NCBI GenBank assembly: GCA_001724265.1
Contig: MEDY01000313.1
Span: forward strand, 1 to 36,318
DNA: 36,318 bases
Direction of reading: 5' to 3'
DNA from: Rhizaria sp. SCN 62-66
Taxonomy: Eukaryota
Shown piece after piece: positions 4,101-30,600 of the stretch. The position numbers and the translations under genes are program-made. Every line of letters begins with the position of its first letter. Position 1 is the stretch's first letter. A model generated the notes under the pieces. It was given only the letters and a program-made list of their open reading frames with translations, did no database searches and was not told the DNA's origin.

Positions 4101-7100
4101 AACCTGATTGAAGGAAGCAAGAGCGAAAACAAAGAAAGAGATATAGATGAGTTATACCACAATAAATCCATAGATTCTTTGTGAATATCATTTATACAGT
4201 AATAATACACCTTATAAAGTCCATATCATAGAGATATATCTGCTTTAGTAAAAACTTACCTGAGACCAAGCGGCGCCGAGCGAGGCAGTCAGCGGCACCG
4301 AGGTGCTGTGCGCCGCCACAGGGCGGCCGCGGGGCCGGCGCTTGGCACTGCCGCCGGCACCACCGGCCGCGCTCGAGCTAGCGCCGCCACTGCCGGGCTG
4401 CGAGGGGCGAGCGCGGGGCCGGTTGGGGTTGAGGGCAAACGTGTGGCTCGAGCCCGAGCTCGAGCTCGACGAGACAGCGACGGCCTGACCGAGAGTCATG
4501 GGGACGGCGGTGTTGGTATTGCTGTTGGTATCAACATCGGCCTCGTCGTCTTCGTCATCGTCGTTGCCGTCGTTGTTCCCGCTACCGGTCTCAGAGAATA
4601 TAACGGAGTCATCGTCGTCGCTGGCGCTGTAGTAGTCATCCTCGTCCTCGTCCTCGTCTTCGTCAGCGTCTTCGTCGTCATTAGCAGCCTTCTTCCTGCC
4701 CTTGCCGCTCTTGCCGCCCCTGCCGTTGCTCTTCCCCTTGCCGCCACCCACGGGCAGCACAAGGTAGCCCGTGGCCGCCAGCGACGCCTGCTTCGCCTTG
4801 GCCGCCGCGGCTTCTGCCGCCGCCGCCGTGGCTGCCGCCGTCACCGCGTCGCCCGTGCCCGCCGTTGCGGCCGCGGAGGCCGCAGCGGCCAGCGCGGCGG
4901 CAGCCGCGGCGGCAGCCGCGGCGTTGGCGGCGGCGCGCGTCGCAGTCATGGGCTCGGAGTGCAACAGCGCTGACGACGACGAGGACGCAAGCATGTTGCC
5001 AGACTTGCCACCGTTCTTGCCCTTGCCTGCCTGTTGCTGCTGTTGCTGCTGCTGGCCCTGCTGATGTTGCTGCGCCTGTTGCTGTTGTTGCTGCTGTTGT
5101 TGCTTCGTCAACGGCTGCTGCGAGTACATTGCGGGCAGCCGTAGCGCGCTCGTGACCGGAATGCCGGCCGCGGCCGTGTCTTCGGACACCATAAAGTACT
5201 TCTGCGCGTACACCGCCGGCGCGGCGAGCTGCTGCTGCTGTTGTTGCTGCTGTTGCTGCAGCAGCAGCTGTCCCAGCCCGCCGCCCGAGCCGCTTGAGTC
5301 GTTGTTGTTGTACTGGTTGTCGTCGTTGTTCGCGCTGTTGCTGGCGTTGTTGGAGCCGCTATTGGCGCTGCGCGCGGCGGCGCTGGCGTCGACGGTCTGC
5401 TTGAACCCCGCAAGCCGGCGGTGCCACTGGCTCTGCCACGCGTTGAGCGATGCCGCCTCGCGCTCCTCGAGCGCGTCCGTCGACCACAGATGGCGCTGCA
5501 TCGCCGCGCGCGCGCTCACGGTGTTGCCGCCGCTGAGGCCGCCGCCGCCGCTGCCGCCGCCGACGCCGACACCAGAGCCGGAGCCGGAGCCGCCGAGGCC
5601 GCCGCTGATGCCGCCCGAGGAGCTGCTGCCGAGCCGGCCGGTGCCCGCGCCAGCGCCAGCAGTGCCTGCCATACTACCGGCACCAGCGTTGGCGCAGTTG
5701 GCATTGCTGCCGCTATTGGCGCCACCGGAGGAGGACGAGAAATGCGACGGAAGCAAAGAAGCAACGCGGTGGCTGCCGCGACTACTGACGCTGCCGCTGC
5801 CGCCGACGCCGCTGCCGCCGCCGCCGCCGCCCGCGCTGGCGCCTCGGCCGGCCGCGCCAGCACCCCCGACGCCACTGCCTCCAGCGCCAGCGCCGCCGCC
5901 GCCCGCGCCGCCGCCACCGCCGCCGCCGAGGCCGCCGAGGGGGGCCGCGACCGCGGTGCCGTCGTCTGCGGGGTCGAAGATGCTGGCGTAGGCGGCCACG
6001 GCCGTGGGGTGCGAGCTGAACTGGTCAAACACGCCGTCCGCGGGCGGCTGCGCCGAGGAGCGCGTGGTAACCACGGCGCCCCCGCTGCGCATCGTCACCA
6101 GCACCGAGCCGTCGGGGCCGCGCGCAACGGTGCCCGCGCCGGAGGCGGCTCCAGTGGAAGCGCCGCCGCCGCCGCCGCCGCCGCCCTTGGCGCCCGCCCC
6201 TGCGGCGACAGGGTGGCCGGCAGCGGCGCTGGCGCTGCTGCTGTTGCTGCTGCCTCGAGTGCGCGAGCGCGCCGCCAGCAGCATGGGCGTGAGAGCCGCG
6301 ACGGCCGACTCAAAGCTAAGCCGCACCACGAGCAGGTGCTTCATGCGCGCGAACGCGGGCTCGACCCAGAGCCAGGAGCCCGCGCCGCCGCCGCTGGCGT
6401 TCGCGTTGGCCGCGGCGGCGCTGCTGCTGCTGCTCGAGCCGGAGTAGCCGCCCGTTCCGCCACCGCCGCCGCCGCCACTGCCGCTGAGGTAGTTCGCTGG
6501 GGGCAGCCCGCTGGAGCTGCTGCTGCCGCCGTTGATGCCGCTGTTGCCGCTGAGCGCGCCGGTGATGTTATTGCCGACGGCGGCGCTGCCGTAGTAGCCG
6601 CTGCCCGCGCCGCCGGCCCCGCCCGCGCCCGCGCCCGCGCCGCCGACGCCCACGCCGCCCGCGCCCGCGCCCAGCCCGGCCCCAGCCCAGTCGCCGAGCC
6701 CGCTGCCGCCGCCGCCGCCGCCGCCACCGCCGCCGCCGCCGAGGCCGAGCCCGCCGAGGCCGCTGGGACCGGCGCTCGTGCCCGCGCCCGCGCCCGCGAA
6801 GCCCGCGGCGGCGGTGGCGGGGCCGTAGAGCGCGGCGTAGCCGTATCCGCCAGTGACCGCGGCGGGCAGCAGCACCGACACAGAAGGGTCAGCGCCGCCG
6901 AAGCCGAGCATGCGCGTGCCCGCCAGCACGCCCACACCGCCGGGCCCGATGCTGGCGCCGAGTGAGGCCGCCTCGATGCGGCCCGCGTTGCCGCCGCCGC
7001 TGGCGTGCAGAGCGGCGGCCGCAGCGGCCGCGGCGGCGGAGGCGGAGCCGCCCGCGCCGCCGCCGGCGTTGGCCAGGGCCAGCGCGCTGGCGGCGGCGGC

Positions 7101-8533
7101 CGCAGCGGCGGCGGGCTGCTGCTGCGCGTGCGCCGCGCCCGCGCCCAAGCCCGCGGGGTTATAGGGGTTGTTTGGGTTGCCGTGGAGCTGGTCTGCGATC
7201 ACCGCGATGCCGCCGCCGCCGCCCGCGCGCGCGCCTGTGGCCGCGGCGGCGCCCGCGCCGGCGGCGCCGGCCCCGGTGGCAGCGCCTGTGCCTGTAACGG
7301 CGCCGCCGGGAGTGAGGCCACCCGCGCCGATGACGCCGCCGCCGACGCTCGAGGCCGAGGCGGAGGCGTCGAGGCGCAGTGACTCCGTTGGGAGGCGGTT
7401 GAGGTGGTCGACGAGCGAGAAGCCGTGCTTCTGCCAGCGCGCCTGCACGGCGCCGAACTCGCGCCACTCGGCGTGTCCCCAAGAGTGCCAGTTGCTCAGC
7501 GGCGGCAGGCGCTCGGCGGCCAGAGTCAGCGCACGGTGCAGCGCCTTGGTGCGCGCGCGCGACTCGCGGTTGCCCTGGCCACCGCCGCCGCCACCGCCGC
7601 CGGTAGACGAGGAGGACGACGCGGAGGCAGTAGCGGAGACGCCTGTAGAGGCCTGTGAAAGCTGAGGCGCGGCGAAAATAAAGCGGAGGGTATCCTTCCA
7701 GCCTTGCCTGATAACTCAAAAAACAGATTTAAAAAGAGAATATGCATCGGAACATGAGAGGAAAATATGACGACGGTTTACAATTAAGTCAAATGTCCCT
7801 ACTTTAACGTAGATCTACAGCTTGAAATAAAAATACAGACAGAGTTGGGACTATCTATACTCTTAGCAGTGTGATTTGTTTCAGGCTCAGAGACAAAGAC
7901 GCACCTCGAGAGCGCGTCGGCGCGCGCGACGCGTTCCTGCGTGTTGGGCACGCGCATGTCCTCGAGCAGCCCGCGCACGCCAGCGGGCAGGTCGTCGTGC
8001 GCGCGCGCGCACTCGGTGTATGCGTAGCGCGAGACGTTGAGCGCGCGGGGCGGGATGTGGTACGCGTGGTGCGGCTGTGGCTGCAGGCTCAGGAGCTGCT
8101 GCTGCTGCTGGTACGACTGGTGCAACGGGAGCGCGTAGCCGCCGCCCGCGCCGGCGCTGTTAGACGAAGAGGGTGGACGCTGGTAGTAAGAGGCATTCGA
8201 ACCAGACGAGCCAGAGCCTGAGCTAGAGCTTGCGTTACTGCTGCCGAACGATGACGGGGCGACGATGCTGGGGGGCTGTCCGGGGCTTGACGCGCCGGCA
8301 ACGGAGGGCAGCATAGTGGGAAGACCGCCGCTCGCGCCCGCTGAGCCAGAGCCGGCTGAGCCTGCGCCGGAGCCAGAGCCAGAGACTGAGGCGGAGGCGG
8401 GGCCGGGGCTGGAAAGAGGAGTGGAGCCAGTGCCTGAGAACGAGGCTGAGGCGCCGGCGCGGGCGAGAGCGTCGCTGCGGCGCGGGCCAGGGCCAACGCC
8501 GCCGCTGCTGCTGGTGGTCACGCTGGCACTCAT
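1119..8533 (-). CDS. Large (~2353 aa) low-complexity protein with a calcineurin-B/neuronal-calcium-sensor-like EF-hand region; 3 exons
   Basis: Exons 8533-7905, 7707-4260, 4103-1119. Introns 7904-7708 (GTGCGT...TTATCAG, phase 2) and 4259-4104 (GTAAGT...AATCAG, phase 0) join ORFs 7799..8635, 4245..7448 and 1119..4064 in frame (7062 nt, TAA stop). Poly-Ala/Gly/Gln/Asp/Asn tracts separate globular-looking islands, including LPFIGDKLFRVL...IDVKDH...LLYHVLDIDEDGVLSVQDIF. The ATG at 8533 is inferred. Confidence 0.8.
2460..2495 (-). other. EF-hand Ca2+-binding loop DIDEDGVLSVQD
   Basis: 12-residue loop with D1, D3, D5, G6, hydrophobic 8, S9, D12. It follows the helix ALLLYHVL, which resembles the (F/Y)xxYDxDxDG context of calcineurin B/recoverin EF3. 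Confidence 0.65.
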
Positions 8534-9983: not shown

Positions 9984-12900
9984 ATGCGCGCTCCCGTGCA
10001 TCTTGGCCGCTCCCGCTCGCAGCCGTCGGCGCTGCGACTGGTGATGTATCTGCTGGCAGCGGCCGCAACGGTGGTAGCGATAGCTCCCACCCTTGCTTCG
10101 GCCGCTCCCGCGCCTTACGACGCGAACACTTCACACAAGCAGGGGCCCACCTCGAGTCCCCTTACGACGGTTGAGGCCGTCACGCGGCTATTTCTCCGCA
10201 GCGCTCCGGCCTCTGCGCGTCACAACCGCGACAACAGTGCCGGTGCCGTTAGCGATACCGACAACGACGGATTCTTCCCCCAATCCGTATTTTCCCATTC
10301 AGACGCTTCGATGCACGCCCTGGGCGCCAACATCGAGCTTGGCTTCGAGGCTTTTGGCTCACAGTATGCGTTCAACATGACTCTGATGCCCTCCGTGCTC
10401 GCTGCGGACGCGCTCGTCGTCGACGGCGTCCCGCAGAAGGTGCAGGAAACACCCTCGTATATGTACGTCAATAACAAATATGCATATGTACTTAGCCACG
10501 TAAAGGTGTGACATTGAGTAATAATGTCAAACTCTATTTAATCTTCTTTCCGTAATACTCTTGCTCTTCGTTTTCTTTGCGTCATCGCCTTATTTTTGCT
10601 AATGATTCTCTCTGTGATCACTTGCATTTGTGTTGTCACTCCTGTTCAGGTCTCGTTTCACTGATTCGAACGGCAACACCGGCTTCGCCGTCGCCACGAT
10701 TGACCCCACCACGAACACTGTCTACTCCGGTTTGATCCACGAAAACGGCGAGCTGGTCCACTTCCAGCGCGCCAGCACGCTCGCCGACACGATCGGCAGC
10801 TTTCGGGCGCAAACTCTTACTGAGGCCTCGCTCGCCGCCGCCGGCTCCGGGCTCGCCGTGCACCGCGTGAGCGACATGAAGCTCTTCGGCGACGACGGCG
10901 AGCCGCTGCTCAAGTGCGGCACGCTCACGCCGCCGCAAAGCAACCCCAACGCCCCCGCGTACAGCGCCGACGACGATGTGAGTTCTGACTCTGGTTCCGC
11001 GACGGCGGGCAGTGTCAGCGAGGCCGATGTCGGCGCGGCGGCGATGGCGCTGAAAAATAAGCTGCTTCGCTCGCTCGTGACCGCGGCCGCCAGCGAAAGC
11101 GCCGGTGGTGACAGTGGTGACAACGATGGTAAGATCGACTACCACGTCCCGCACGTACCCTTCGCCTCGACACTGTCGAACTCTGACAGCGACAACGGCG
11201 CCAGCGACGAGAACAGCGGCAACCGCAAGCTCCTGCTGAAGAAGTGGACCAACTGCTTCTCTGGCGGCCCCTACAAGCTCCGGTCTTTGCTCGCGGTCGA
11301 CGTTGGCACTTACGCCGCTCTCGGCAGCACCACATCGGCCGTGTCCACGGCAATGAGCGCTATGTACGCGCTCGTCAACACTGTATACTACCCGCAGCTG
11401 GACCTGTACGTAACGATCGACACGCTTCTGGTGCGGACAACGACGGGCACCGAGGCGTGGAACCATCTGGCCAAGACGACCAGCGGAACCACGTGTCCGT
11501 CGAGCGTGAGCACGCTGCTCGATCAGTTCACGGCGTGGAAGAACGCCAACTACCTGAACGACTTCGGCTTCGCACACCTTATGACGTCGTGCTTCCCCCC
11601 GCCCGGCACGGTCGGACTGGCCTATGTGGGTACCATTGGCTCCAAGAGCTACAGCACCGGGTGGAGCCAGCAGATGGGCGGCACCACGTGGCTCACTTTC
11701 GCCCACGAGGTTGGGCACAACCTCGGTGCGCAGCACACATTCAGCCAGGGACAGGGCACCACGGGTACGTCACTCAGGTTCAAACTGAAGGAACAAGGAA
11801 CAAATATCAATGCCACATCCACAATTTTTTTCAATTGCATGTTTATGACTCTAACTTTTTATTTTTAAACGTTATTTGTCGGTGCACGGTATATCCGCGT
11901 CAAATGTAGGTGGCATCATGGACTACGGCAACGGCCGGCTGCTGGCCACCGACTCCGACAACCCGAACGAGTACGGCTTCCACACGACGTTCAGCAAGAC
12001 CGAGATGTGCACGGCCATTTCGCGCTCTATCTCCGGCACCACCAGCGGCCTCGTATCCCCGCTGACCAAGGCGTGGGTAGCCTTCACGCCGATGTGCGGC
12101 GACGGCATCGTCGACGCCGCGCTTGGCGAGGAGTGCGACCCCGGGACTCCGGGCGTGGCGTCAGCGTGCTGCACCGCGCAGTGCAAGTTCACCACGGGCT
12201 CCACCTGCGACGGCGCCAGCGCGTGCTGCGTCAGCTGCAAGATGCAGCCCGTGGCCACGCCCTGCACGTCCAACGGCGCCACGGGCCGCTGCGGCGCTGG
12301 CGGCGTGTGCACCGCCAGCTCCTGCGGCTACTACTCCAACACTGTCTTCTGTGACATGAGTCCCAGCAACGCGTGCAGCGAGCGGTGCGCCTTTACGGGC
12401 TCCACCACCTGCAACGTGCTCAACTCGAACTTCAACCGTACCAACGGCGATCTCTGCCAGCTCGGCACCGCCACAGGTATGTAAACGCTCCTCTTTTTTT
12501 TGCGTCTTCATCATTGACGTTTTTTGTTTAACTTATTACATGTGCCTCATTACTATCTTTGCCCAATGTATTTTCTTGTTTTTGCTGTCGTTTAGGCGTG
12601 TGTTCGGGCGGCGCGTGCGTCGCGCAGACCTACACTGCGAGCAACGTCACGGAGTGGTCCTCCTGCCAATGCCCCGCCTCCGTCATGACGCGCTCCTTGA
12701 CCTGCCGCAATCAGGTCGGCTCGGTCGTCGCGCAGTCATACTGCGCGTCTGCGACGCCTATTTCGCAGGCGTGCTCGTGCACGACGGCGACGTGGTACGC
12801 GGGCGCGTGGTCCGCATGCACGGGCACGAGCTGCGCCGCGGGCGCGGGCACGCAGACGCGCACAATCGAGTGCCGCGACAGCAACGGCGCCGCCACCACG

Positions 12901-15900
12901 GGCTGCGCTGAGTCCTCGAAGCCCGCGGCCTCGCAGGCCTGCAACCGGCCGTGCACGTACTCGTGGACGTGCCGCGCCGCCGCGTCGACTGCGCTCGGCT
13001 CGGCCGAAGTCTGCGGCGAGAGCAACGCCTTTGCGGCCTGCGGCACCACCTGCGGCACGTCGACGCGCACCCGCGTCGTGACATGCCGCGACGACCTGAA
13101 CCAGGCCGCCACTGACTCGGCCTGCGACGGCACCAAGCCCGGCACCTCGCTCGCTTGCACGGCGACCGACACGTGCGGCTGGCGCTGCTACGCTACGGGC
13201 GGTAGCAGCACCGCGGCCGTGTTGTGCGACAACGACGGTGCGTTTGGTACGTGCTCCGCTACGTGCGGCTCGGGCCAGCAGACGCGCGCCGTGGGCTGCT
13301 TCGGCGACTCGCTGGCGACGACGCTGTCCGACTCGTTCTGCACGCCCAACGCACCCAGCAAGCCCGCGACGACGCGCGCGTGCACCGGCACCGGCTGCGT
13401 CGAGCAGTGGTACTGCGCGGCCACGGGCGCCGACGTGAGCACGCGCCGCCTTTGCTCCGAGGTGCCCGCGTGGTCCACCTGCAGCAGCACCTGCGGCGCG
13501 GGCGTGCAGACGCGCCAGGTCATGTGCATGAACCAGCTCGGCCAGGCGGGCACCTGCGCCGGCGTGGCCGCCCCCGCGAACTCGCAGGCGTGCTCGTCGA
13601 CCGCCGCGTGCGTGTGGCGCTGCAAGCCCACGGGCGCGGCGTCCTCGTTTGAGCCCGCGCTCTGCACGTTGTCCACGACCTTCGCGGCCTGCAACGAGAA
13701 CTGCGGCGCCGGCACACGCACCCGCACCGTCGGCTGCTACGCGCCCGCCGCGCTGACGGTCGCGCTGGACGACGCCATGTGCCCCACGGCGACAGCGGGC
13801 GCGAAGCCCGTGACGTCGACGGCGTGCGAGGGCACGGACTGCGTATATTCGTATTCGTGTGCGGCAACAGGCGCCGCGGCATCGACGGCGACGGACTGCG
13901 TGGCCGACGACCAGTGGTCGGCCTGTGGCACCACGTGCGGCGAGTCGACACAGACGCGACAAGTGCTTTGCAAGAACCAGAAGGGCGAGACGGCCGCGCT
14001 GGCCCGCTGCCAGGACTTCCTTCCCGCGGTCACCACGCCGGCCGCGAGCAAGGCGTGCGTGGCCAAGAGCAGCTGTTTGTGGTCCGCGGCCGCGTGGGGC
14101 GCGTGTTCCGCCACCTGTGGGGCAGGAACCACCACGCGCGCTGTCACCTGCCGGAGCTCCAATCAAGGTACGCAATTAGTTCACATGCAATTTCATCTGA
14201 AACTGTGAACATCCTTCATCTCTCCCATGTAAATGACTGTAGCGACGATGTCTCACGTCGTCGCTACACATGTACATATGTACATGTATCATGAAACTCA
14301 TACTCTAACATCATGGAACGCATCATGAAACTCATACTTTAACTCTTATCGTGCTTAAATGGTTTACGCTTTCTGAACTATAGTTGAAATGGCGGAAGGC
14401 TTCTGCTCTGAAGCCGGCTCTAAGCCCGCCACGTCTTCCTCATGCGAAGGCTCCGGCTGTGTGTACCAGTACTACTGCTACAACATCACTGGCGGCACCG
14501 TCGCGCAGGCCACGCCGTGCAGCACCAACATCGTATGGGGTGCTTGCTCCGCCACTTGCGGCACCGGCACGCGGACCCGCGCCGTCACCGCGGTGTGCCT
14601 CAACCAGAACAAGGTCCAGAGCAGCACGGCCTGCGCCGCGCTGACGCCGCCCGTGCTGTCTGAGTCGTGCCGCGCGACATCGGCCTGCGCCTGGGGCTGC
14701 CAGGCCACCAGCAGCGACGCCGTGGAAGCCTGCACCGCCACCGGGCCCTGGGGCGCGTGCTCCGAGCAGTGCGGCACGGGCGTCAACACGCGCGTTGTCA
14801 CCTGCCGCAACGGTACCGGCGCAACCGTGCTGGATGAAACCCTGTGTGTGGACGGCGCCGGCACGAAGCCCGCGACGAGCGGGTCGTGTCTGCTGCGCCA
14901 GTGCCAGTTCGTGTGGCACTGCTACGCCAACGGCGCCGCCGTGACCTCCGCGGTGCCATGCACGACCGAGAGCTCGTGGAGCGCCTGCGGCACAACGTGC
15001 GGTACGTCCACGCAGTCGCGCCAGACCGTCTGCCTGGACTCTGTCACGCGCGAGCAAGGAACTTGCCAGGTACGTTTGGAACGAAACAGTGCTTGACAAT
15101 TGCCTGAGAAAATCTTGAGATTACTAATGTGTTTTTCGATATGTTATTTTTCAATGGCCCAAACTTACGTGCGTTATATTCATTATTTTCTCACTAATGT
15201 TGATATCATAGGAGACTCGTCCGGCCAGCTCCCGCTCCTGCTCTGCGACGAGCACGTGCCAGTGGGCGTGCCGCACGCCCACCTCCGCGCTCTCCGCCGC
15301 GGGTTCTTGTGACGGTGAGTTCGGCTTCGCGTCCTGCTCCGCGTCCTGCGGCAACGGCACGCGCTCGCGTACCGTCGCCTGCATCAACAGCGCCAAGGAC
15401 GTGCTCGCCAACACCATGTGCCCCGTCGAGACGGCGGGCGCGCGCCCGACCGACAGCATCGCATGCTCCGGTGTCGGGTGCGTCTATGGGTGGAAGTGCG
15501 GTCCGACGGGATCGGCGGCCGCCAACCTGCGCGACTGCGCCCTCGAGACTACCTGGTACGTCGTCAGAACTAGGCTTAGAAGCAACGCACTAATCCCCTA
15601 TTTTAATGTATAACGACATCTCACTTGCTTTATTTATACGTTCACTCAACTATCTCAATATTCTCAATACTTGTGCCATATTGCCCCCTCGCAGGACTGG
15701 CTGCTCCACCTCGTGCGGCAACGCCCTCGAGTCGCGCGTCGTCCAATGCCTGAACCAGAACAACCAGGTCGCCGCCTCGGCCGACCTGTGCACGGGCGCC
15801 AAGCCCGACGCGCAGCGCACGTGTTCCTCCACGGCGACGTGTCAGTGGCAGTGCTACGGCCTCACGGCCGACGTCACCACGCGCAAGGACTGCTCCAACG

Positions 15901-18900
15901 CCTCGACCTGGGGCTCCTGCCCCTCGCGCTGCGGCGTTGCCAGTCAGACGCGCCGCGTCGGCTGCTTCTCGCCCTACAACAACAACGCGCTCTCGGAGAG
16001 CTTCTGCGCGGCCTACACCAAGCCCGCGCAGCTGCAGTCCTGCAACGACTCTGACTGCGCCTTCGAGTGGGTCTGCGCCGCGGCCGGGCTCGACGCGTCT
16101 GTGCCGGGCGTCGGCGTGGCGTGCGCGCAGAACCCCGGCTGGGGCGACTGCGGCACCACGTGCGGCTCGCGGCTGCAGATCCGCTCAGTGGCCTGCATGC
16201 GGCCCAACGGCACGCTGGGCACCGCGACCGACTGCGGCAGCACGACGGGCGACATCGCGACCATGCAGCAGTGCACCGCCAATTCCGGCTGCGGCTGGCG
16301 CTGCTACTCGCCCGACGCCGACGCCGCCGCCACGGCGACCAACACGACGGACTGCGCGAGCGAGGCGACCTGGGGCTCGACGTGCTCTGCGCAGTGCGGG
16401 CCAGGCGTCAGAGAGCGCCGCGTGCAGTGCGTCTCGGGCGCCGACGACTCCGTGGTCGACGAGGCGCTCTGTCTGGCCGCGCCTGAGGTCCACGGTGCCA
16501 AGCCCGCCGCGGCGCGCGCGTGCTCGGGTACAACGTGTACGTACCGCTGGTTCTGCTATGCGCCCGACGCGGACCCCTCGACGGCGGAGCAATGCGCGGC
16601 TGACAACGCGTGGGGCGGCTGTGCGACGTCGTGCGGCGAGAGCAATCGCTACCGGACGGCCGTGTGCCGCGACCAGGACGGGCAGGACGCGCTGGGGATG
16701 TGTCTCGAGGCCGAGCCCGAGACGGTGCAGCCCTGCTCGTCGACCGAGACCTGCCGCTGGGGCTGCTCGCCCCATTCTAATGAGTTCGCCGACTGCTCGC
16801 TGTCCGAGACGTGGGAGCCCTGCTCCGCGTCGTGCGGCCTCGGCACGCGCGACCGCACGGTACAGTGCCGCACCGGCTTCGGGGAGGGCTCGCTGGCGCT
16901 CAATGACACCTTCTGCGCGGCCGCGACCGCTGGCGCGAAGCCCGACGCCGCGAGCTCGTGCATCGACACGCCGTGCCCGGCCTCATGGTTCTGCGCGCTT
17001 GAGGGCACGGAGCCGTGGGCCGCCGAGCTGTGCTCCGTGGCGACCAGCTCGTGGCCCGCGTGCACGGCCACGTGCGGCACCGCGACGCTGCGCCGCCAGG
17101 TCCTCTGTCTCGACGTCGACACGCGCGCCGTCCGCGACGACTGCGCCGAGGCCAAGCCGGCCGACGAGATGACGTGTTCATCTTCGGCGGCGTGCGCCTG
17201 GCAGTGCTTCCCCGGCAACAACACCGCCGCAGCCGCCGTGGCGTGCAACGAGAACGCGTGGACCTCGTGCTCCGCGCAGTGCGGGCCCGGCGTCCGCACG
17301 CGCGCGGTCCGCTGCTCCGGCCTCACGGGCGCCGCCGCGGGCACCGCGCTCGTCGACGACAGCTTCTGCCTCCCGCAGTCCCAGTCCGGCGGCGCCGGCA
17401 CCGGCAGCGCGCGCCCCAGCGACAGCGACGTGTGCGAGGGCAACGCCTGCTCTTACGCCTTCTACTGCCACGCGCCCAGCGAGACCTTCGCAGTCGCGCA
17501 CATCGCGAGCTACACTTGCGGCGCCGACGACAACTGGTCCGCGTGCGGCACCACGTGTGGCGCGGGCACACAGACGCGCGTGACGACGTGCCGCGACCAG
17601 CTGGGCCGCGAAGACGCCTCGCGCTGCACCGATCTCCCCACGACGTCACGCGCCTGCACCGGCACCAGCTCTTGCGGCTGGCTCTGCCGCGGCTCGACCG
17701 CGCTCGCGACCGACGCGCCGCTCGCCTGCTCGAGCGGCAACTCGTGGGGCGCGTGCTCCCGCGCCTGCGGCCTGGGCGTCAAGAGCCGCGCCGTGTTCTG
17801 CGGCGACGTGGCGAACCCGCAGTCGACGGCGACGATCGCCGCGGCGCTGTGCGGCGCAGCGGCGTAGCCCGAGAGTGAGCGCGACTGCTACGAGGAGGCG
17901 TGTGCGACGACGTGGCACTGCGCGGCCACGCAGGCGCAGACGCCGTCGCCGTGCACGTCCGCGGTGACGGCCGAGGCGGACTCGACGTGGGCGGCGTGCA
18001 GCACCCAGTGCGGCGACGGTGTGCGCGCGCGCTACGTGACGTGCCGCAGCACGGCCTCGCGCACGCTGCGCGACGAAACCGAGTGCGCGGGTGAGTTCAA
18101 GCCCTTGGCGCAGCGCAACTGCAGCGAGAGCTCCTCGTGCGCCTGGGAGTGCAGTGCCAACGGCACCGTGACGGTCACGAACCCCGCGGTGCGCTGCACG
18201 GCGGGCAGCGAACTCGCGCTCGCCGAGACCAGCACGTGGCCGGCCTGCCCCGTCGACTGCGGCTCCGCAGTCGCCACGCGCGTCGTCGGCTGTGTCAACA
18301 GCTACCTCGCCGCCTCGGCGGCCGGCCGCACGGTCGATGACAAGTTCTGCAACGCTAACTTCTACGTCGGCCAGAAGCCTGCCGTGAACCTGCCCTGCAG
18401 TGGCTCCAAGTGCGTGTACCAGTGGTACTGCTCCGAGCCCGGCAGCACTGTCAAGAAGCCCTGTTCCGAGGCGCCCAGCTGGGGCCCCTGTGGCACCACG
18501 TGCGGCGAGTCGACGCAGCGCCGCACCGTGCAGTGTCTGGACCAGACCGGCGGCGCGGGCGCGTGCGTCACGGCTGCGCCCGCGGACTCGCAGACGTGCC
18601 AGGCGACCGAGACGTGCCGTTGGCAGTGCCGCGCGCCGCTGGCCGCGAACGAAACCGGCATGACGGACGCGCAGCTGGCGCCTACCTTCTCGGCTTGCAG
18701 CGACGCTGAGGACTCAGCCGCGTGGTCAGGCTGCTCCGCTACGTGCGGCGCCGGTGTGCGCACGCGCGAGGTCGTCTGCCACACCGCCGACTACAGCAAC
18801 AGCTCCGGCTCCGGCAGCAACAGCTCGGCGACCGTGAGCAATGCGGCCGTGCTCAGCGACGCTTTCTGTCCCGCCACGGGCCCCGCGGGTGCGAAGCCGG

Positions 18901-21900
18901 CTGTGCAGGGCCCCTGCACGACGTCCAAGTGTTCGCACTCGTGGTTCTGCTCCGCCAATGCGACGAGCGCGGAGCGCTGGTGCCCCGAGGCCGAGGACTC
19001 CGCCGAGCACTGGTCCGCCTGCTCTGCGGGCTGCGGCACGGGCACGCAGACGCGCCGCGCCGTGTGCCGTGACCTGGCCACGGGCTCGGAGTCGACGCTC
19101 TGCACCGAGGCGCAGCCGGCGCTGTCGCGCGCGTGCTCGTCCTCGCGCGCCTGCGCGTGGCTGTGCAACCCGCTCGCGGGCAGCGCTTTTGCGGGCGCTG
19201 CGGCCGTGTCGTGCGATGATGGCGGCGCCGGCGGGTCCTGGGGTACGTGCTCCGCCGTCTGCGGCCCCGGCTCGCAGACGCGCGCCAAGGGCTGCTTCAG
19301 TCTCGACACGGGCGTCGCCGTCTCTGTCGCCGCCGAGCTCTGCGCCGGCGCCGTGGCGCCCGCGACGGAGCAGCAGTGCCAGGCCAAGGCATGCACCTTC
19401 AGCTGGCACTGCTATGGCGACACGAGCGCCGTCTCCGACGCCAAGCCGTGCGCGCAGCAGCCCTCCTGGGGCGTGTGTGGCTCCACCTGCGGGCTCTCGA
19501 AGCAGCACCGCAACATCGTCTGCCTCAACGACGACACCAAGGCGCTCGCCGCTGACGCCGTCGCGTGCGGCCCCGCGGCCTCGGCGCCGCCGCTGGAGCA
19601 GGAGTGCTACGGCTCCTCGACGTGCCGCTGGATGTGCCGCTCGCCGTCGCAACCCGCGACCGCAGCCGGCGAGTGCGTCGACACGGTGACCGCGTGGGGC
19701 TCTTGCGGCGCCACGTGCGGCGCGGGCGTCAAGACCCGCATCGTCGAGTGCCGGCCAGGTGCCGCGGGCGCCGCGGTGGGCGGCACAGCCGAGTCTGACA
19801 TGCTCTGTCCGCAGACCACTGCCGGCACCAAGCCGGCGACGACGACGCCGTGCCGCGCCGCCACGTGCCAGAATTCCTGGTTCTGCTATACCGAGGACGT
19901 CGCCAGCGCGACGCTGTGCGACACGGCGCCCAACTGGGGCGTGTGCAGCAACTCATGTGGCATCGGCTCCCGCAGCCGCAAGGCCGTCTGCCTCGACATC
20001 ACCACGCGCAAAGTACGTGTATCACTATATCCCTGAATTTTCTAAATCTGACATCTCGCAAATGATTTTCACACCCATAATTCCATATTTAACATCACTT
20101 ACTTTATCTCGCTTGGTGTAAAAAAAAAAATTGTTTTTCCTTGCACTTTAGGCGTCTACGACTTGCCCCGAGGCGCAGCCTGACCTGGAGAGCTTGTGCC
20201 AGGGCCGCAGCGGCTGCGGCTGGCGCTGCTATACGTCGACCAACACGACCCGCCGCACGTGCGATGCGACGTCCTTCGGCCTCTGCGGCGCGGCCTCTTG
20301 CGGGCTCGGCATGCAGTACCGCGAGGTGCGCTGCTTCCCGCCCGCCGCCAACGCCACCGCCGTGCCGGACTCGTACTGCACGGCGGACGCCGCGGCGGGC
20401 GCGCGCCCGGCATCGTCGCGCTCTTGCGTCAACACCGACAACTGCTCCTTCTCCTGGCAGTGCCGCAAGCCGGGCGCCACGGAGTGGGCGGCGTGCTCCA
20501 GCGGTGACGCGCAGTTCTCGGCCTGCCCCGCGGGCTGCGGCGAGACGGCCGCAACGCGTGAAGTGCGCTGCGTGAACCCCAGCAATGTCGAGGTCGATGA
20601 GTCCGCGTGCGTGACCTCGAAGCCGCTCACCACGCGCGCGTGCTCCGCCACAAGCACCTGCACCTACGGCTGGCGCTGCTTGACGTCCGCGGCCACCGCG
20701 CTCGAGGCGCCCGCCGTATGCTCGACCGGATCGAGCACGGTCGGCTGGTCCGCCTGCGACACTTCGTGCGGACCGGGCGCTAGCACGCGCAACGTCGTCT
20801 GCCTCAACCTCAACCTGGGCGTGCCCGTCGACTCTTCCCTCTGCGTCACTGCTACCGGCGCTGCGCCCGAGTCGTCGCGCGCGTGCACGGGCACGGGCTC
20901 CTGTCTGTGGCGCGCGGGCACATGGTCCACGTGCTCGCCGCAGTGCCGCGCGCTTTCCACCTCGCCCAACGGCGCCCGCGCCCGCGTAGTGTCGTGCACG
21001 GGCGTGCTCAGCAACGGCACCGCCGTCGCCGTCGCGTCCTCGCTCTGCTCCAGCTCCTCCGCGCCCGTCTCGAGCGAGACGTGTGCCGACACGCCGCTGT
21101 GCAGCGCCGCCAACAAGCCCTTCTGGGTCACTGGCGCGGCCGCCACTGCGTGCGTGGCCGAGTGCGGCACGGGCTACCAGACGCGCAGCGTGGCTTGCCA
21201 ACTCGACGGCGCCATCGTTTCCGACGGGCTCTGCATCGCGAGCACGCGCCCCGCCGCCATCGTCGCCTGCAACGCCACCACCGCGGCGTGCCCGCAGGCC
21301 TCTACGTCAGTCGAGTCGTCGCAGTGCGTTGACCGCGAAGTCACGGTCACGCTGCCGATTCCCACCACGAATGGCTCCGCGTCCACCGCGAGCGAGACCA
21401 AGACCATCACCACCGGGGTCTGCGTCTGCGCCAACGGCTTCACGGGCGCCACGTGCACGGCCCCGCCCTCGACGGTGTCGGCCGTGTCGTACTCGCCCAG
21501 CGGCGCCGTCTACCGCGGCACCACGCTCTTCATTTCCTGGACCTACACGCCCTCTGCAGCCGCGCTCGCGGCGGACGAGACCGAGTATGTGACGATCATG
21601 TACGAGCGCTCGGGCATGGGTGAGAAGTTCCCCGTGCCCATTGCCACAGTCGCCGCCGCGGACGGCACTTACAGCTGGCTGACACCCCTGGACCTGCCCA
21701 CGGCCACGGCGGCGCAGATCTCGGTGCACGTTGCCACGGGCATCCGCGCGCGCTCGCTCGCCTTCGCCGTGCCCTCGGTCTGCTCCGTCGGCGCCTACTG
21801 CAACGGCAACGGCCAGTGCAAAGAGGACTTGGACTCCGGCACGGCCACCTGCGCCTGTGAGTCGGGCTTCACCGGCACGCGCTGCGACGTCGGCGCCTGC

Positions 21901-24111
21901 GATGACGCTAAGTGCTACCAGCCCGGCACGGCCTCGGTCACCGCCGACACCTGCGCCTGCAATTGCAACAGTGCCTACACGGGCGCGACCTGCCTTACCC
22001 CGCTCAACTGCACCAACGCGGCCTCGTTCGACCGCGTCGTGTGCGCCAACGGCGGCGTGAACCAGCCCCCCGCATCTGGCTCCAACGCCGTCTGCGGGCC
22101 CTGCGCCTGCACCAACGCGTGGGAAGATGACACCGACGTGGTCGCCCGCAGCAACCGCGGCTGCACGCGCTGCGGGTTGTCGTGCGGCGCGCACGGCAGC
22201 GGCAACACCGACTGCACGGCCTGCACCTGCGCCGCAGGCTACGCGGGCGCGCGCTGCCAGTGCCGCGCTGTCACCCTCGCGCTGTCATTTAAGTACACGG
22301 TGCTGCCGTGGACGGACATGACGGCCGCGGCGCGCAGCACGGCGCTCGCGCTGCTCGAGTTCGAATTGGAGACCGTGGGCAAGCTCCCCGCCGGCTCCGC
22401 GCGCGCCAGCAGCTCGCCCGCGCCCAGCGTCATCACGCACGTCAAGTACGGCAAGCACACCACCCTGTGGTTCAACGTCGTCGGCGCCTGCGACGTTGAG
22501 ACATTCGACACCATGTCCGCGCTCGACCAGACCGACCTGTTCCCGGTGAGCAACAGTACGACTGCCGACGGTGACAGCGATTCTGCGGCGGCGTTCGCCG
22601 CGCTCAAGTCGATCGAGGCCGTCTCCCTCTCGGCGCTTCTCGCCGTCGGCGACAGCGACAGCAACGGCAGCGGCGTCGCGTTCGCCGCGGCCGCCGTCTC
22701 CGGCGACGCGAGCACCGAGACGACGCTGAGCGATCTCTACACCGCGATCAGCCGCCTCATCGCCGCCTTCTCCCTCGACGGCGACTCCACGGGCTCGGGC
22801 TCCGGCTCCGGCACGAGCACCGGCGCGGCCAACTCGCAGTCGGCGCTGAGCTCCACCGTCGCGCTGTCCTCCGCGGCCATCTCGCGCGGGCTCTATGTCT
22901 CGGACCCCAACTGCACGCCCTCGGCGACTTCGTCCTACTGCCCCGCCTCGACCGGCGCGGTGCGGTCCACGGGCGCGACAACCGACGACGACGTGTGCGT
23001 CGGCTCCGGCTGCGACACTGACGGCAGCGGCGACAGCGACCCCAACTCCAAGTACGGCTTCCTCAAGGCGCTGATCGTGATTCCGGGCGTGCCCGCGTGG
23101 GCGAGCATTGTCATCATCCTCGGCGGCGGCGTTCTTGTGCTCATCCTCCTCATCGTCCTAATCTGCTGCTGCCACAGCCGCAGCAAGCGACGCAAGGCAG
23201 AGCGCAACCGCTCCACGCTCAACGACGCCGCCACCGAGACCTTCGCCTCCCCCGGCGCCGGCGCCAGCGCCAGCACCAGCGCCAGCGGCGGTGTCGGCCG
23301 GGCTGGGGGCCGCAGCGTGGTCGGCGCGACGAGCGTGCAGGTCGAGATGACCCCGCGCCCGCAGTCAACCGCTCCCCGCGCGGGCTCCGCCGCCGGCGCC
23401 GGCGCCCCGCCGCGTGCGGCCACCGCCCCGCGGCCCAAGGGTGCCCCTGCCCCCGCCGCCGCTGCCCCTGTCGCCGCTGCCCCGGCAGCCGCTGCCCCTG
23501 TTGCCGCTGCGGCTGTGGCTGCGCCTCGCTCGAGTGCGAGCAACTCTAAGTACGACCAGGCTGCGACGGCGCCCCGGCCCAGCGTCAAGCCCGCCGTCGC
23601 CGTTCCTGCTGCCGCGACTGCGGCTGCTGCTGCCGCTGCTGTGGCGGCCGCCGCCGTCACTGCCGCCGTCGTCGCCTCGAGTGACAAGCCGGCGGAGACG
23701 GAGAACGAGACCGCTGACAACGATACCAGCTACGACGAGGACGCGGCCTTCACCGGCGCCGCCGTCCCCCTTGCGGCCAACGTTAACACCGAGGCCGACG
23801 CGCATGCTGACTCCGACACCGACGTCGAGGGCGCCGAGAACACCACTCATAACAACAACGCCGTTAACAGCAACAACGCGAACGATGACGGCGAGATCGA
23901 GAACGTCAACTCGGACGCCGCAGACGCTGACGCCGACGCCGACGACGGTGGCGACGTGCTTGACGCTGACGCTGACTTCGCCGCCGAAGCTGACGCCGAC
24001 GCAGCCGTTTCCGAGCCTGTGCCTACTGCCTCTGCTGCTGCTACTGCTGCCGAGGCCGAGGCCGAGGCTGAGGATGAGAGCCAGGGCGAAGGCGAGATCG
24101 AGAGCAACTAA
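9984..24111 (+). CDS. Giant membrane-anchored ADAM/ADAMTS-like metzincin metalloprotease with ~36 thrombospondin type-1 repeats; 8 exons; one internal in-frame TAG
   Basis: Exons 9984-10462, 10650-11764, 11910-12476, 12596-14167, 14384-15069, 15212-15555, 15695-20012, 20152-24111. All 7 introns are GT-AG, AT-rich, 119-216 nt and frame-preserving (13041 nt = 4347 codons, TAA stop). Motifs in order: hydrophobic signal peptide (start 9984 or 10044), cysteine-switch-like LKCGT, RKLL processing-like site, HEVGHNLGAQH plus Met-turn GGIMDY (joined across intron 2), disintegrin-like CGDGIVD..GEECDPG..CC..C, WxxCSxxCGxG..R.V.C repeats, EGF modules (C.C..GFTG..C), TM helix, acidic tail. Codon 2312 is TAG. 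Confidence 0.88.
11704..11736 (+). other. Metzincin zinc-binding motif HExxHxxGxxH (HEVGHNLGAQH), reprolysin/M12B-like
   Basis: Intact motif with catalytic Glu, preceded by GTVGLAYVG and followed after splicing by the Met-turn IMDY. Confidence 0.92.
12095..12310 (+). other. Disintegrin-like cysteine-rich domain
   Basis: CGDGIVDAALGEECDPG...ACCTAQCKFTTGSTCDGASACCVSCKMQPVATPC matches the ADAM pattern CGNG.V..GEECD.G...CC...C.......C....CC..C. Confidence 0.75.
14226..14343. repeat. Hairpin, palindrome and direct-repeat cluster inside intron 4 of the metalloprotease gene
   Basis: 14-bp stem TGTAGCGACGATGT-ctc-ACGTCGTCGCTACA (14238-14268) bracketed by CATGTA (14226-14231, 14269-14274). 20-bp perfect palindrome at 14268-14287. 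22-bp direct repeat ATCATGAAACTCATACT(C/T)TAAC at 14288 and 14322. Confidence 0.75.
17865..17867 (+). other. In-frame TAG inside exon 7 (readthrough, recoding, nonsense allele or sequence error)
   Basis: ...CTG TGC GGC GCA GCG GCG TAG CCC GAG AGT GAG CGC GAC TGC... The same frame continues as PESERDCYEEACATTWHC and stays open to the intron at 20013. Confidence 0.9.
23098..23172 (+). other. Single transmembrane helix with juxtamembrane CCC and basic stop-transfer segment
   Basis: WASIVIILGGGVLVLILLIVLICCC followed by HSRSKRRK: type I topology; Cys palmitoylation is plausible. Confidence 0.85.
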
Positions 24112-25880: not shown

Positions 25881-26554
25881 AAGTCGGTGAAATATAGTGA
25901 TAGGTGTCCAATAGACGGCCTCAAACAGTGATGTGATGCAATAATGCTGATTTTTGTTGTAGATGCGTGAAATAAATGCGAGATCATGCCGATCTGCGTT
26001 TATATGGGCGAAGATCTGCAGCAAGGTCAGCCTGGTCGGGTGCCCATCCTACGGAAGGAAAGTGGATAAAACACAACAGAAGATGCACAATTAAGTAAAC
26101 AGAAACTTAAAAAAATAGATGCAATTAGTTGTTGAAGAGAATTCTGTTGATTTGATTTTGTTAACGGAATCTGTGGTGATAAACAAAGTCAACTCATGTC
26201 GGTGCAAAAGTTCCCACCACTTTTGCCGATCGGTGTCTGCCTCGGTCGGTTGGTCTCAGTCTCGGTCGGTCAACTGGAGAAAGAAGTTAAGCCGGCGGGG
26301 GGTGGAGGAATGCGGAGCTTTCTTGATTCCGATTTGTGTGCCTCACGTAATGCTGCTGGGACTATTTTGCCTTTAATCATCGATTGACGCTTGCTTTTAT
26401 AATCTATTTGTTGTAGTTGTCGCTTTAGCGGCCCTCGTTTTGGTGCGCTATAGAGACTTGTTCTGTCGCCGCCCCATCCACCCACTGCAGGACCGATCAC
26501 CCTCACCTCGCCTTGCTTTCGCCCTTTGTATCTCGTCCTCTCCGCAGTATCTCG

Positions 26555-27013
26555 ATGCCCAAGATCGCTGACGACCAGAAGGCCGACCTCGCGTGCACCT
26601 GCGCCGCCCTCATCCTCTCCGACTCCAACACTGCTGTCTCGTACGTCGCCCCATTCATCGCACCCTCACAACCGCCAGACTTACGCGAGAGTTCCTCTTC
26701 CCTGCGCTTGCAGCTCCGTCTCGACCACGCGCTTGTCTCTCTCACTATCCTCACAATACCTCTCTTTCGTTTCTCTCTGTTCCACCTGTTCCTCTGCTTT
26801 AGCGCCGACAACATCGCTGCCATCCTGGCCGCTGCCGGCTTCGACAACATCGAGGGCTACTACCCCAAGCTCTTCGCCTCCGCTCTTGAGGGCAAGGACA
26901 TCGGCGCCGTCCTCTTCGGTGGCAACGCTGGCTCCAGCTCCTCCTCCTCCTCCTCCTCGGGCTCCTCCTCGTCCGGCTCTTCCTCTTCTGACTCCTCCTC
27001 TGATTCCGATTAA
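26555..27013 (+). CDS. RPLP1: 60S acidic ribosomal stalk protein P1-like (98 aa), 2 exons, atypical poly-Ser C-terminus
   Basis: Exons 26555-26640 and 26803-27013; intron GTACGT...CTTTAG (162 nt). Product MPKIADDQKADLACTCAALILSDSNTAVSADNIAAILAAAGFDNIEGYYPKLFASALEGKDIGAVLFGGNAGSSSSSSSSSGSSSSGSSSSDSSSDSD. LAC..AALIL.D and P.LFA.AL are P1 signatures. Confidence 0.9.
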   Translation: MPKIADDQKADLACTCAALILSDSNTAVSYVAPFIAPSQPPDLRESSSSLRLQLRLDHALVSLTILTIPLFRFSLFHLFLCFSADNIAAILAAAGFDNIEGYYPKLFASALEGKDIGAVLFGGNAGSSSSSSSSSGSSSSGSSSSDSSSDSD

Positions 27014-27699: not shown

Positions 27700-30600
27700 A
27701 TGTCCGCCTCCTCTATCGCAGCCTCCGGGCCCGCTCTCGGCGCCGGCCTCTCCCCGGTAGACTTTTTCCTCTCCCTCGCCAAGGACAGCGCCAACGCCAC
27801 CAGCGCCTCTGCTGCCTCTGCCTCCGAGGCCTCCGCGGCCTCCGCGATGACCGACGGCGCCGCCGACGACGACGGCAACAAGCAGCGCGTGCTGCGCGTG
27901 TTCTCGCGCGGCGACTTCTACGCTGTCTTCGGCGCCGACGCGCTACACGCGGCCGCCGAGCTGTACAAGACGAGCGACGTGCTGCGCTACGTGGGCGCCG
28001 ACGACGCCGTGCCCACGGTGCCCGTCTCGCGCCCACGCCTCGCCGTGCTGCTCCACGACGCCGTGCTCACGCGCGGCTGGGCGGCCGAGGTCTACGAGCC
28101 CGTTGCCGCCGCGGCCGACGCTGACGATCACGATCACGACAACGATGACGACGACGACTACAGCAACGACGGGGCGGAGGGCAAGGGCAAGGCCCGCGCG
28201 TCCTCGTCCTCGTGGTGGCGCCTCGTCGCCCGCGGGTCCCCCGGCGACCTTAGCGCCTTCAGCGAGCTCCTGTCGTCGGCCTCCGGCACCAGCATCACCG
28301 TCGCCGTGCGCGTGTTTGATCTCGCTGGGCAGCGCACCGTCGCCGTCGCGCTGCTCGACACACTTGCCACGGCGCCCGTGCTGTCGCTGGGCGAGTTCCC
28401 CGACACAGACGCCTTCACCTCGCTTGCCACGTGCCTCGGCCAGTTCGGCCCCGCCGAGTGCCTGCTCTCGATCGACTCGGTCTGCGCCGACGCCGGCGAC
28501 GGCGACGTCGTCGCCGAGGTCCTCACCACCGCCAGTGTGCGCGTCATCGAGGCCTCCGGCAGCGGCAGCGGCAGCGGCAGCGTGGGCGCGGGGTCTGGCG
28601 GCGGCAGTGAGAGCGGTCGCGCCGCCCTGTTCCGCCCGTCCCCCGACGCCGCGGGCGCAGTCGAGCGTCTGGTCCGCGAGAGCGACCGCCACGCGCTCGC
28701 GGCCTACGTTGCCGACCACAAGCCCGTCGCGGGCGCCGCCTTTGCGCTCGCGGTGCACCTGGGTGCCGCCACGGCCCGCGGCACGCTCGTCGCCGCGGAG
28801 GGCAGCTGGCGCTTTCAGGTACGATCTCTAGATGTAACAACTTGTGCACATAATCACGCGTTATTAAAATTAAGTTCTCATTACTACATGTCTTTGTACC
28901 AGAGTCCTATCATGCTTTGTTTTTATTTTCTCAAATACTCATCGTGTCTTGTATATTCCTCTTTTGTCAATTTCTCACGCTTCTCTCAAGGCCGTCGACC
29001 TGGGCCGGTACATGCGTCTCGACGCGGCCGCCCAGGTCGCACTGAACATGTTCCCGACCCCGCAGGACACCGAGAAGACGATGTCGCTGGCCGGTCTGCT
29101 GAACCGCACGCGCACTGCGATGGGCGGCCGGCGCCTGCTGCAGTGGCTGAGGCTGCCGCTGCTGGATCGCAGCGCGATCAACGACCGCCTGGACGTCGTG
29201 CAGGTGCTGACAGACCACGGCAGCATGCTCGCGGGGCTGCGCGAGGCGCTGCGCGGCGTCGGCGACATCGACCGCCTTATCCGCAAGCTCCAGAAGCAGA
29301 CGGCAACGCTGGAGGACGTCGTCGCACTCTACCTGCTCGCGTCCCGCCTGCCCGCGCTTGTGTCGGCGCTCGAGACGGGCGCTGAGAGGGCGACGGCGGA
29401 CGCCGCGGCCGCCGCGGGCATCGACGCAGCGGGCGCGGCCGCGGCGGCGGCGCTCGTGAACAAGGTCGCGACGCGCTATCTGGAGCCGCTGAAGGAGGGG
29501 CAGACGCTGGTGATGCCGTACGAGGAGCTCGTCAAGACCACGGTCGACCTCGCGGCCGCTGCTCGGTACGCATATTGTGCATGATTTTATCAAAAACGGT
29601 ATACTTAATGTATAATCTATATTAATGATCTATTTTAAGGCAACTTCCTCACATATTATGCTGTTATATCTCGCTTTAATCATTATTTTCGTAACTCCTC
29701 CCGCAGCCGCGAGTACCTGATCAATCCCAGCTTCAACGAGGAGCTGGCCGAGCTGGACCGCCAGAAGACCAAAGTCAAGACCAAGATGGAGAACTCGGTG
29801 CCGCGTGTGGCGGACGAGCTGGGCCTGGACGACAAGAAGGTCAAGCTGAACCACGCCGGCAACCTCGGCTACCACTACCGCGTCTCGCGCAAAGACGAAA
29901 AGGCGCTGCGCGACTGCAAGACATACACCGCGCTCGAGACGCGCAAGGACGGCGTGCGCTTCACCAACAGCCACATGAAGGACCTCTCCTGTGTGTACGA
30001 GGACCTGGCGCGCGAATACAGTGAGACCCAGAAGGATGTCGTCGACAAGGTCCTCAACATTGCTAAGGGCTACGCGCCCATCTTCGCCACGCTGAGCACG
30101 CTTTACGCCGACCTGGACGCATTCGCCTCGCTTGCGCACGTGGCTGTGAACTCGTCCCCGCCGTACGTGCGCCCCACGCTCCTCCCGCGCTCCTCCGAAT
30201 GCAACAGCAGCAGCAGCAGCAGTGCGAGTGCAATGACCGATGAAAATAGAAACGCTGATGGCAGCAACATCGTGAGCGCGATCCGTCTTCGCGGCGCGCG
30301 CCACCCGTGCCTCGAGGTGCAACAGGGCGTGTCGTTCATCGCCAACGACATCGAGCTGGTCAAGGGCAAGAGCAACGTGCAGATCGTCACGGGCCCGAAC
30401 ATGGGCGGCAAGTCGACCTACATCCGCACCGCGGGCTGCATCGCGGTCATGGCGCAGATGGGCTCCTTCGTGCCGTGCACGAGCGCGGAGCTGTCGGTGC
30501 TTGACGGCGTGCAGGCGCGCGTCGGCGCCGGCGACAGCCAGATGAAGGGCATGTCGACCTTCATGAAGGAGATGCTCGAGGCGGCTGCTATCCTTAAGTC

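Follow-up and report, generated by a model that had tools for sequence, protein, structure and literature searches.

The stretch of DNA considered here, referred to as the window, comprises 36,318 nucleotides (nt) of contig MEDY01000313.1 of Rhizaria sp. SCN 62-66 (GCA_001724265.1), with GC-rich exons (~0.70) set among AT-rich introns and spacers. On its plus strand, at 9984-24111, lies a gene for a reprolysin-type protease with a long chain of thrombospondin type-1 repeats (TSRs), the reading frame of which is interrupted by a single in-frame TAG. This TAG is a reproducible feature of the DNA, and the reading favoured here is an ordinary nonsense allele.

The gene was modelled by splicing at the visible splice signals, which gives 8 exons and 7 GT..AG introns with a coding sequence (CDS) of 13041 nt, or 4347 codons. 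The spliced CDS has two stops only, the TAG at codon 2312 and the terminal TAA at codon 4347; the initial annotation, which first drew attention to the TAG, had arrived at identical numbers. The introns are 119-216 nt long with a GC content of 0.32-0.40, and they have GTACG donors in 6 of 7 cases, GTATG in the remaining one, and YAG acceptors. The features of the gene, all on the plus strand, are the following.

9984..10462, plus strand: exon 1, with the ATG and a signal-peptide-like N-terminus (hydrophobic stretch at residue 19)
10650..11764, plus strand: exon 2, reprolysin (M12B) catalytic domain, with HEVGHNLGAQH at 11704-11736 (residue 512)
11910..12476, plus strand: exon 3, weak disintegrin-like region
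12596..14167, plus strand: exon 4, TSRs
14384..15069, plus strand: exon 5, TSRs
15212..15555, plus strand: exon 6, TSR
15695..20012, plus strand: exon 7, 4318 nt, TSRs, with the TAG in mid-exon
17742..17903, plus strand: interrupted TSR (TSP1_ADAMTS), matched by PF19030 across the TAG
17865..17867, plus strand: in-frame TAG, codon 2312 of 4347, in the frame of the open reading frame (ORF) 15594..17867
20152..24111, plus strand: exon 8, last TSRs, EGF-like modules, transmembrane (TM) helix, acidic/Ala-rich tail and TAA at 24109-24111
23107-23169, plus strand: TM helix, one strong helix at residues 4013-4033

The catalytic domain of exon 2 is matched by PF13688 (E 1.9e-20) and PF01421 (E 5.9e-10), and HEVGHNLGAQH within it represents the zinc motif HExxHxxGxxH. 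The disintegrin-like region is a weak match to PF00200 (E 2.6e-4; 22.1 bits, under the cut-off of 35.1 bits). The TSRs are of the ADAMTS type, with PF19030 E values of 3e-52, 5.7e-64, 2.3e-52, and 1.1e-23 in four exon pieces. A strict regular expression finds 32 TSR cores in the full protein, 20 before the TAG and at least 12 after it, where the initial annotation gave 14. The protein tail after the TM helix is of low complexity, and its GCN and Ala/Ser-coding repeats (23250-23290 and 23620-23640) draw in hundreds of foreign contigs, with a summed depth of up to 820 and spurious joints in the contig alignment.

The anatomy proposed for the two possible products also holds in this model. Termination at the TAG would give a chain of 2311 residues with the signal peptide, the protease and TSRs and with no anchor, while the predicted full-length product has 4346 residues and joins reprolysin domain, more than 30 ADAMTS-type TSRs, EGF-like modules and TM anchor in one gene.

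The TAG in public DNA records

The organism is uncultured, and the samples that hold the locus come from bioreactors, wastewater and activated sludge. Three DNA runs of two studies (X1-X3; 2015, 2016, and 2017), which may include the source of the window itself, each contain 1.00 of the 223 words sampled from 16800-19000. Runs X8-X16 contain small shares of words, which do not enter into the evidence. The Logan contig of X3 is 3595 nt long and covers 15526-19120 with 0 differences from the window, TAG included.

A collection of 15 billion proteins, in which the genes of this locus are called in prokaryote style, tells the same story from the ORFs. One of them (P0001, 753 residues, 753/753 identical to the window) ends at the TAG, and a second (P0002, 690 residues) has its first codon 33 codons past the TAG and is identical to the window bar its start residue. 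Both occur on 7 contigs from two assembly sources, Logan and ENA, and the longest contig bearing them is 109,504 nt. No ORF spanning the TAG was found in that collection, either among proteins of 30-136 residues, among those of 137-438 residues, or in an all-length search of representatives; in the last, high scores went to the two window-identical ORFs alone, all others having at most 46% identity.

These records bear on a sequencing or assembly error, in which the true codon would be AAG or another sense codon. The initial annotation had considered such an error at least as likely as a functional role of the TAG, and GC-rich repeats are indeed error-prone. However, all the sampled words are present in three runs from two studies, the independent Logan contig agrees base for base, and TAG-bounded ORFs recur on 7 contigs. 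The TSRs are just 60-80% alike to one another at the DNA level, so that mis-assembly of one repeat onto another is unlikely as well. An error is thereby largely excluded and retains a minimal probability. The TAG is a real, reproducible DNA feature rather than an assembly artefact, and no other allele is on record from the reactor populations sampled. In the public protein collection the gene is already present as two separate ORFs, and gene callers will continue to split it. If the TAG is an ordinary nonsense allele, its interest is practical, as an example of a premature stop that is real and reproducible in a eukaryotic gene assembled from metagenomes and yet implies no recoding.

The interrupted repeat and its context

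The reading frame carries on directly after the TAG as ORF 17868..20036, with the pattern of the repeats, and the next stop of the gene is codon 4347, which bears out the earlier statement that the frame resumes at once and stays intact. The DNA around the TAG is exon-like, with a GC content of 0.72-0.75 and no GTACGT donor of the local type nearby, also as described before. An intron hiding the TAG was considered and rejected: the sole upstream GT..TAG candidate is 19 nt long and frame-shifting, whereas local introns are AT-rich with GTACGT donors.

When the TAG is translated as X, the match to PF19030 extends over residues 15-68 of the test segment and profile positions 5-55 of 55, the X being residue 56 and the TAG falling at profile position ~43. 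The segment before the TAG alone matches profile positions 5-38 only. Because the TAG lies inside the TSR domain, termination would leave a broken repeat without its last two cysteines. The position of the TAG ignores domain borders, as would be expected of a nonsense allele.

The TSRs of this gene alternate between two types, and the TAG occupies the x of the xP motif in a B-type copy. In the 14 other B-type repeats this position is Lys in 10, Arg in 3, and Ala in 1, reproducing the tally of the initial annotation. All 10 Lys codons are AAG, the three Arg codons are CGC and the Ala codon is GCG; the TAG is therefore a single A-to-T substitution away from the Lys codon of 10 of its 14 sister repeats, and the earlier remark on this point is upheld.

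The base following the TAG (+4) is C, and the bases at -1 and -2 are G and C. The +4 base had been offered as a sign of leaky termination, and the literature cited for this effect and for the residues inserted at UAG is sound in the portions available (PMC4615788, PMC4150775). The first of these ranks +4 leakiness in the order C>U>G>A and stop leakiness in the order UGA>UAG>UAA (PMC4615788), and yeast inserts Gln, Tyr, and Lys at UAG (PMC4150775). The C is thus present and of the leakiest class, but it is not specific to the site: the next codon is CCN (Pro) in 15/15 repeats, so that the +4 C goes back to the KP motif and was not selected. Any leakiness that it confers is background, common to any mutation from AAG-CCN to TAG-CCN in the protease gene. 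The predicted RNA fold of the next 60 nt has a minimum free energy (MFE) of -21.2 kcal/mol (z +0.84), within the range of the paralogous positions, and that of the next 100 nt has an MFE of -48.3 kcal/mol (z -1.13), where 14 paralogous positions give -32 to -50. Compared with these paralogous repeat positions, no readthrough-type context or downstream RNA element is peculiar to the TAG site. The site shows no sign of selection for leakiness, and by this evidence the codon is not special.

These observations bear on functional readthrough, in which a useful share of ribosomes would decode UAG as Gln, Tyr, or Lys and the gene would yield both a secreted form of 2311 residues and an anchored form of 4346 residues. 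Several features are in keeping with it. Termination is weak at a UAG that is followed by C, and insertion of Lys would re-create the KP motif; the frame is open for 2035 codons with intact TSR, EGF-like, and TM features; both halves of the gene are represented among the contigs of a polyA RNA library; and the true stops of the window are followed by G, G, T, A, and G, never by C. On the other hand, the +4 C is merely the first base of a Pro codon shared by all 15 repeats, the downstream fold is ordinary, and UAG is not the leakiest stop according to the available part of the literature (PMC4615788). The short form would end in half a domain with an unpaired Cys, whereas a switch shaped by evolution should sit between modules. 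Support from conservation is absent, the orthologue search being empty in both the protein collection and the metagenomes of the Joint Genome Institute (JGI). In the protein collection no orthologue of the protease was found, the best matches beyond the window's own ORFs being TSR proteins at 33-46% identity; a scan of the JGI metagenomes with the 333 residues around the TAG gave 342 pattern matches, of which 0 were confirmed by tblastn, although the flanking peptide patterns missed the locus itself. The differences of a second strain past the TAG, of which 4 are synonymous and 5 non-synonymous, also count against readthrough. Functional readthrough is accordingly considered quite unlikely.

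The closest known parallel is the programmed readthrough of the type of Drosophila kelch and headcase, in which a single stop likewise stands between two long in-frame coding parts. Different species are reported to share the kelch stop and its ORF2, and the product of readthrough is reported to have been detected there. The case of the protease differs in that its stop is UAG rather than UGA and breaks a domain. That a very long extension is possible is seen from kelch ORF1/ORF2 (bioRxiv 10.1101/2020.06.22.165522, in the part available).

Use of UAG in the window

A tally of in-frame TAGs, one of the checks proposed by the initial annotation, was run on nine confidently coding segments of the window, which hold 8447 codons with a GC content at third positions of 0.81-0.92 and represent about 5-7 genes. 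Codon 2312 of the protease is the sole in-frame TAG among them, while the two off-frames hold 8 and 22. When ORFs were called with only TAA and TGA as stops, the true coding frames of the window likewise contained no other in-frame TAG. The tally thus speaks against recoding, and TAG behaves as a stop elsewhere in the window.

About five probable gene ends can be recognized in the window, 4 TAA and 1 TGA with 0 TAG, followed by the +4 bases already given. The earlier count was six ends (5 TAA and 1 TGA), none of them TAG; the lack of TAG stands, whereas two of the ends, at 4245 and 33509, are probably intronic. The first belongs to the minus-strand ORFs 4248-7715 and 1122-4151 (window 1119-7715), which are probably exons of one gene, the apparent TAA at 4245 being immediately preceded by a GTAAGT donor; neither ORF has a Pfam match above the cut-off. 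The second belongs to the minus-strand ORF 33512-34201, whose end lies in AT-rich DNA and which probably belongs, as an upstream exon, to the DnaJ-like gene 31908-33470 (window 31905-34201), so that the TAA at 33509 would be no gene end. On the plus strand, 26550-27013 is a gene resembling those of acidic ribosomal P-proteins (PF00428, E 1.7e-6) and ends in a poly-Ser/Asp run; since the usual C-terminal motif is absent from all frames nearby, a further exon may be missing from its model.

The gene ends and the tally together bear on a change of the genetic code, in which the organism would read UAG as an amino acid, always or by context, and the protease gene would be intact. Nuclear variants that affect UAG only are described for the rhizarian exLh, where UAG encodes Leu, and for Iotanema spirale, where it encodes Gln (PMC5304391). 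The gene ends of these two, reported in the available part of the same source as 56 UAA/15 UGA and 104 UAA/15 UGA, show the pattern found here, namely TAA and TGA without TAG (PMC5304391). The affinity of the organism also leaves room for such a variant: the neighbouring MSH2 gene is matched about equally by chlorarachniophytes, a cryptophyte, Capsaspora, and animals (47-54% identity; one NCBI protein at 63%), and the best named matches include rhizarians at only 49-52% identity, so that no lineage prior excludes recoding. An Atlas look-up for MSH2 yielded generic MutS clusters only.

The number of in-frame TAGs is nevertheless far from that of the known cases, which carry 384 in-frame UAGs in 71 genes and 204 in 126 genes, or 1.6-5.4 per gene (PMC5304391), against 1 in 8447 codons in the window. 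Codons ending in G are strongly favoured in the window (CAG 238 vs CAA 26; AAG 190 vs AAA 7), and TAG should therefore be common if it were a sense codon; at 1 TAG per 1000 codons, the probability of finding no more than one in 8447 is 0.002. Five gene ends are also too few to show avoidance of TAG, and Guttulinopsis vulgaris, as far as the available text goes, ends nearly all its genes in UAA while most likely keeping UAG as a stop (PMC5304391). A tRNA scan found 0 tRNA genes in the window, and Rfam matches there were likewise 0. Recoding of UAG is regarded as improbable.

The probable nonsense allele, strains and RNA contigs

The evidence is best accommodated by an ordinary Lys-to-stop (AAG-to-TAG) nonsense allele that is real and predominates in the populations sampled; a probability of about 0.6 is assigned to this reading. 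The initial annotation had mentioned such an allele as at least as likely as a switch, and this is the reading that the evidence favours. The TAG would terminate translation and is presumably recent and unselected. According to this reading, one A-to-T change in the AAG of the conserved Lys-Pro motif of one TSR would have produced a premature termination codon, at which ribosomes would mostly halt. The main product would be a secreted protease-plus-TSR protein of 2311 residues with a broken last repeat, lacking the EGF-like modules, the membrane anchor and the tail, while near-cognate tRNAs misreading the codon at an unselected background level would be the only source of any full-length protein. 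The 2035 codons past the TAG would still be open because the change is recent. In these respects the TAG resembles nonsense alleles of other large modular extracellular proteins, which also involve a single base change from the consensus sense codon (here AAG to TAG) inside a domain, in an ordinary context and with an intact downstream frame. It differs from them in that the ancestral sense allele is not observed, the TAG allele being the sole one recorded, on 7 contigs.

Several observations weigh against the nonsense allele or loosen the case for it. The 2035 intact downstream codons fit recency and continued translation equally well. No strain or relative has been seen with a sense codon at the site, so that the Lys-to-stop mutation is deduced rather than seen, and TAG is used by none of the roughly five gene ends of the window. 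In addition, a close second strain is present in ENA, with an exon-4 ORF (12596-14167) that differs by 1 residue (P0006) and an MSH2 ORF (29639-31219) that differs by 2 (P0160). The exon-4 and MSH2 ORFs of window type occur on 4 contigs each, compared with 7 for the two ORFs that flank the TAG, which suggests that the variant strain shares the TAG. If the TAG is shared by slightly diverged strains in this way, a very recent private change becomes less likely. Contigs of run X4, a polyA metatranscriptome, map to exon sequence before as well as after the TAG and have similar depths there (for instance, 16364-16821, 17869-18360, 19154-19753, 20743-21357, and 22608-23252), so the message is not obviously destroyed. 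Finally, the contrast in single-nucleotide polymorphisms (SNPs) between the two halves of the gene, given next, is not significant (Fisher P 0.20), and these SNPs come from single contigs of depth 3-6, with the downstream half consisting partly of the low-complexity tail.

The SNPs distinguish the window from the strain found in two runs of 2025 from another study (X4 and X5), for which 26 differences are listed in 15 kb. Upstream of the TAG, 9 are synonymous and 3 non-synonymous, a departure from neutrality (P about 0.0004-0.002) that indicates purifying selection; downstream, 4 are synonymous and 5 non-synonymous, which is compatible with neutrality (P 0.18-0.29). This gives a weak hint that the downstream half is under less constraint.

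The RNA contigs also bear on editing, in which the UAG would be removed from the message, for example, by A-to-I change to UGG or by U-to-C change to CAG. One X4 contig starts at 17869, two bases past the TAG, and could reflect heterogeneity of the reads near it. At a depth of ~4, however, contig ends are mostly coverage gaps, and a branch at the TAG would start a contig at 17866-17868, not at 17869. No alternative letter at 17865-17868 is listed in four runs, of whose pieces the X3 contig covers the site while the listed contigs of X4, X5, and X6 stop short of 17865-17867 (the X5 contig stops near 17733, and in this bin the depth of X6 is zero). Furthermore, the X4 contig 13226-14172 reaches 5 nt into intron 4 (14168-14172), which implies that the X4 library also contains unspliced RNA or DNA; its contigs are therefore not proof of transcription. 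We know of no lineage-specific precedent for such editing, and it is rated highly improbable.

Taken jointly, readthrough, recoding, and editing amount to a doubtful alternative to the nonsense allele; a part of the probability is assigned to none of the readings considered here. That UAG is decoded in a useful fraction, whether by readthrough, by a rare or context-dependent sense reading, or by editing, and so divides the protease into a shed form of 2311 and an anchored form of 4346 residues, is unlikely. The proposal that the codon acts as a secreted/tethered switch gained no support here, given the inherited +4 C, the ordinary fold, the position of the stop inside a TSR, and the absence of other TAGs from the coding codons tallied. 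Were it true, the extension of 2035 codons would be among the longest readthrough extensions known, and the switch would be the first of its secreted-versus-tethered kind in a protist, a cheap means by which a single message supplies a surface protease both shed and anchored.

Apart from its TAG, the gene can be compared with the ADAM and ADAMTS proteases (M12B reprolysins) of animals, with which it shares the signal peptide, the reprolysin domain with HExxHxxGxxH, and ADAMTS-type TSRs. It differs in that the protist chain joins TSRs in ADAMTS-like fashion to EGF-like modules and a TM anchor in ADAM-like fashion, that its disintegrin match remains under the Pfam cut-off, and that its host is a GC-rich protist. 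The best named matches are ADAMTS-like proteins of a hemichordate and a crinoid at 33-37% identity. As an ADAM/ADAMTS hybrid outside animals, the architecture is a modest curiosity, and the gene bears on how early an extracellular toolkit of the ADAM/ADAMTS type arose.

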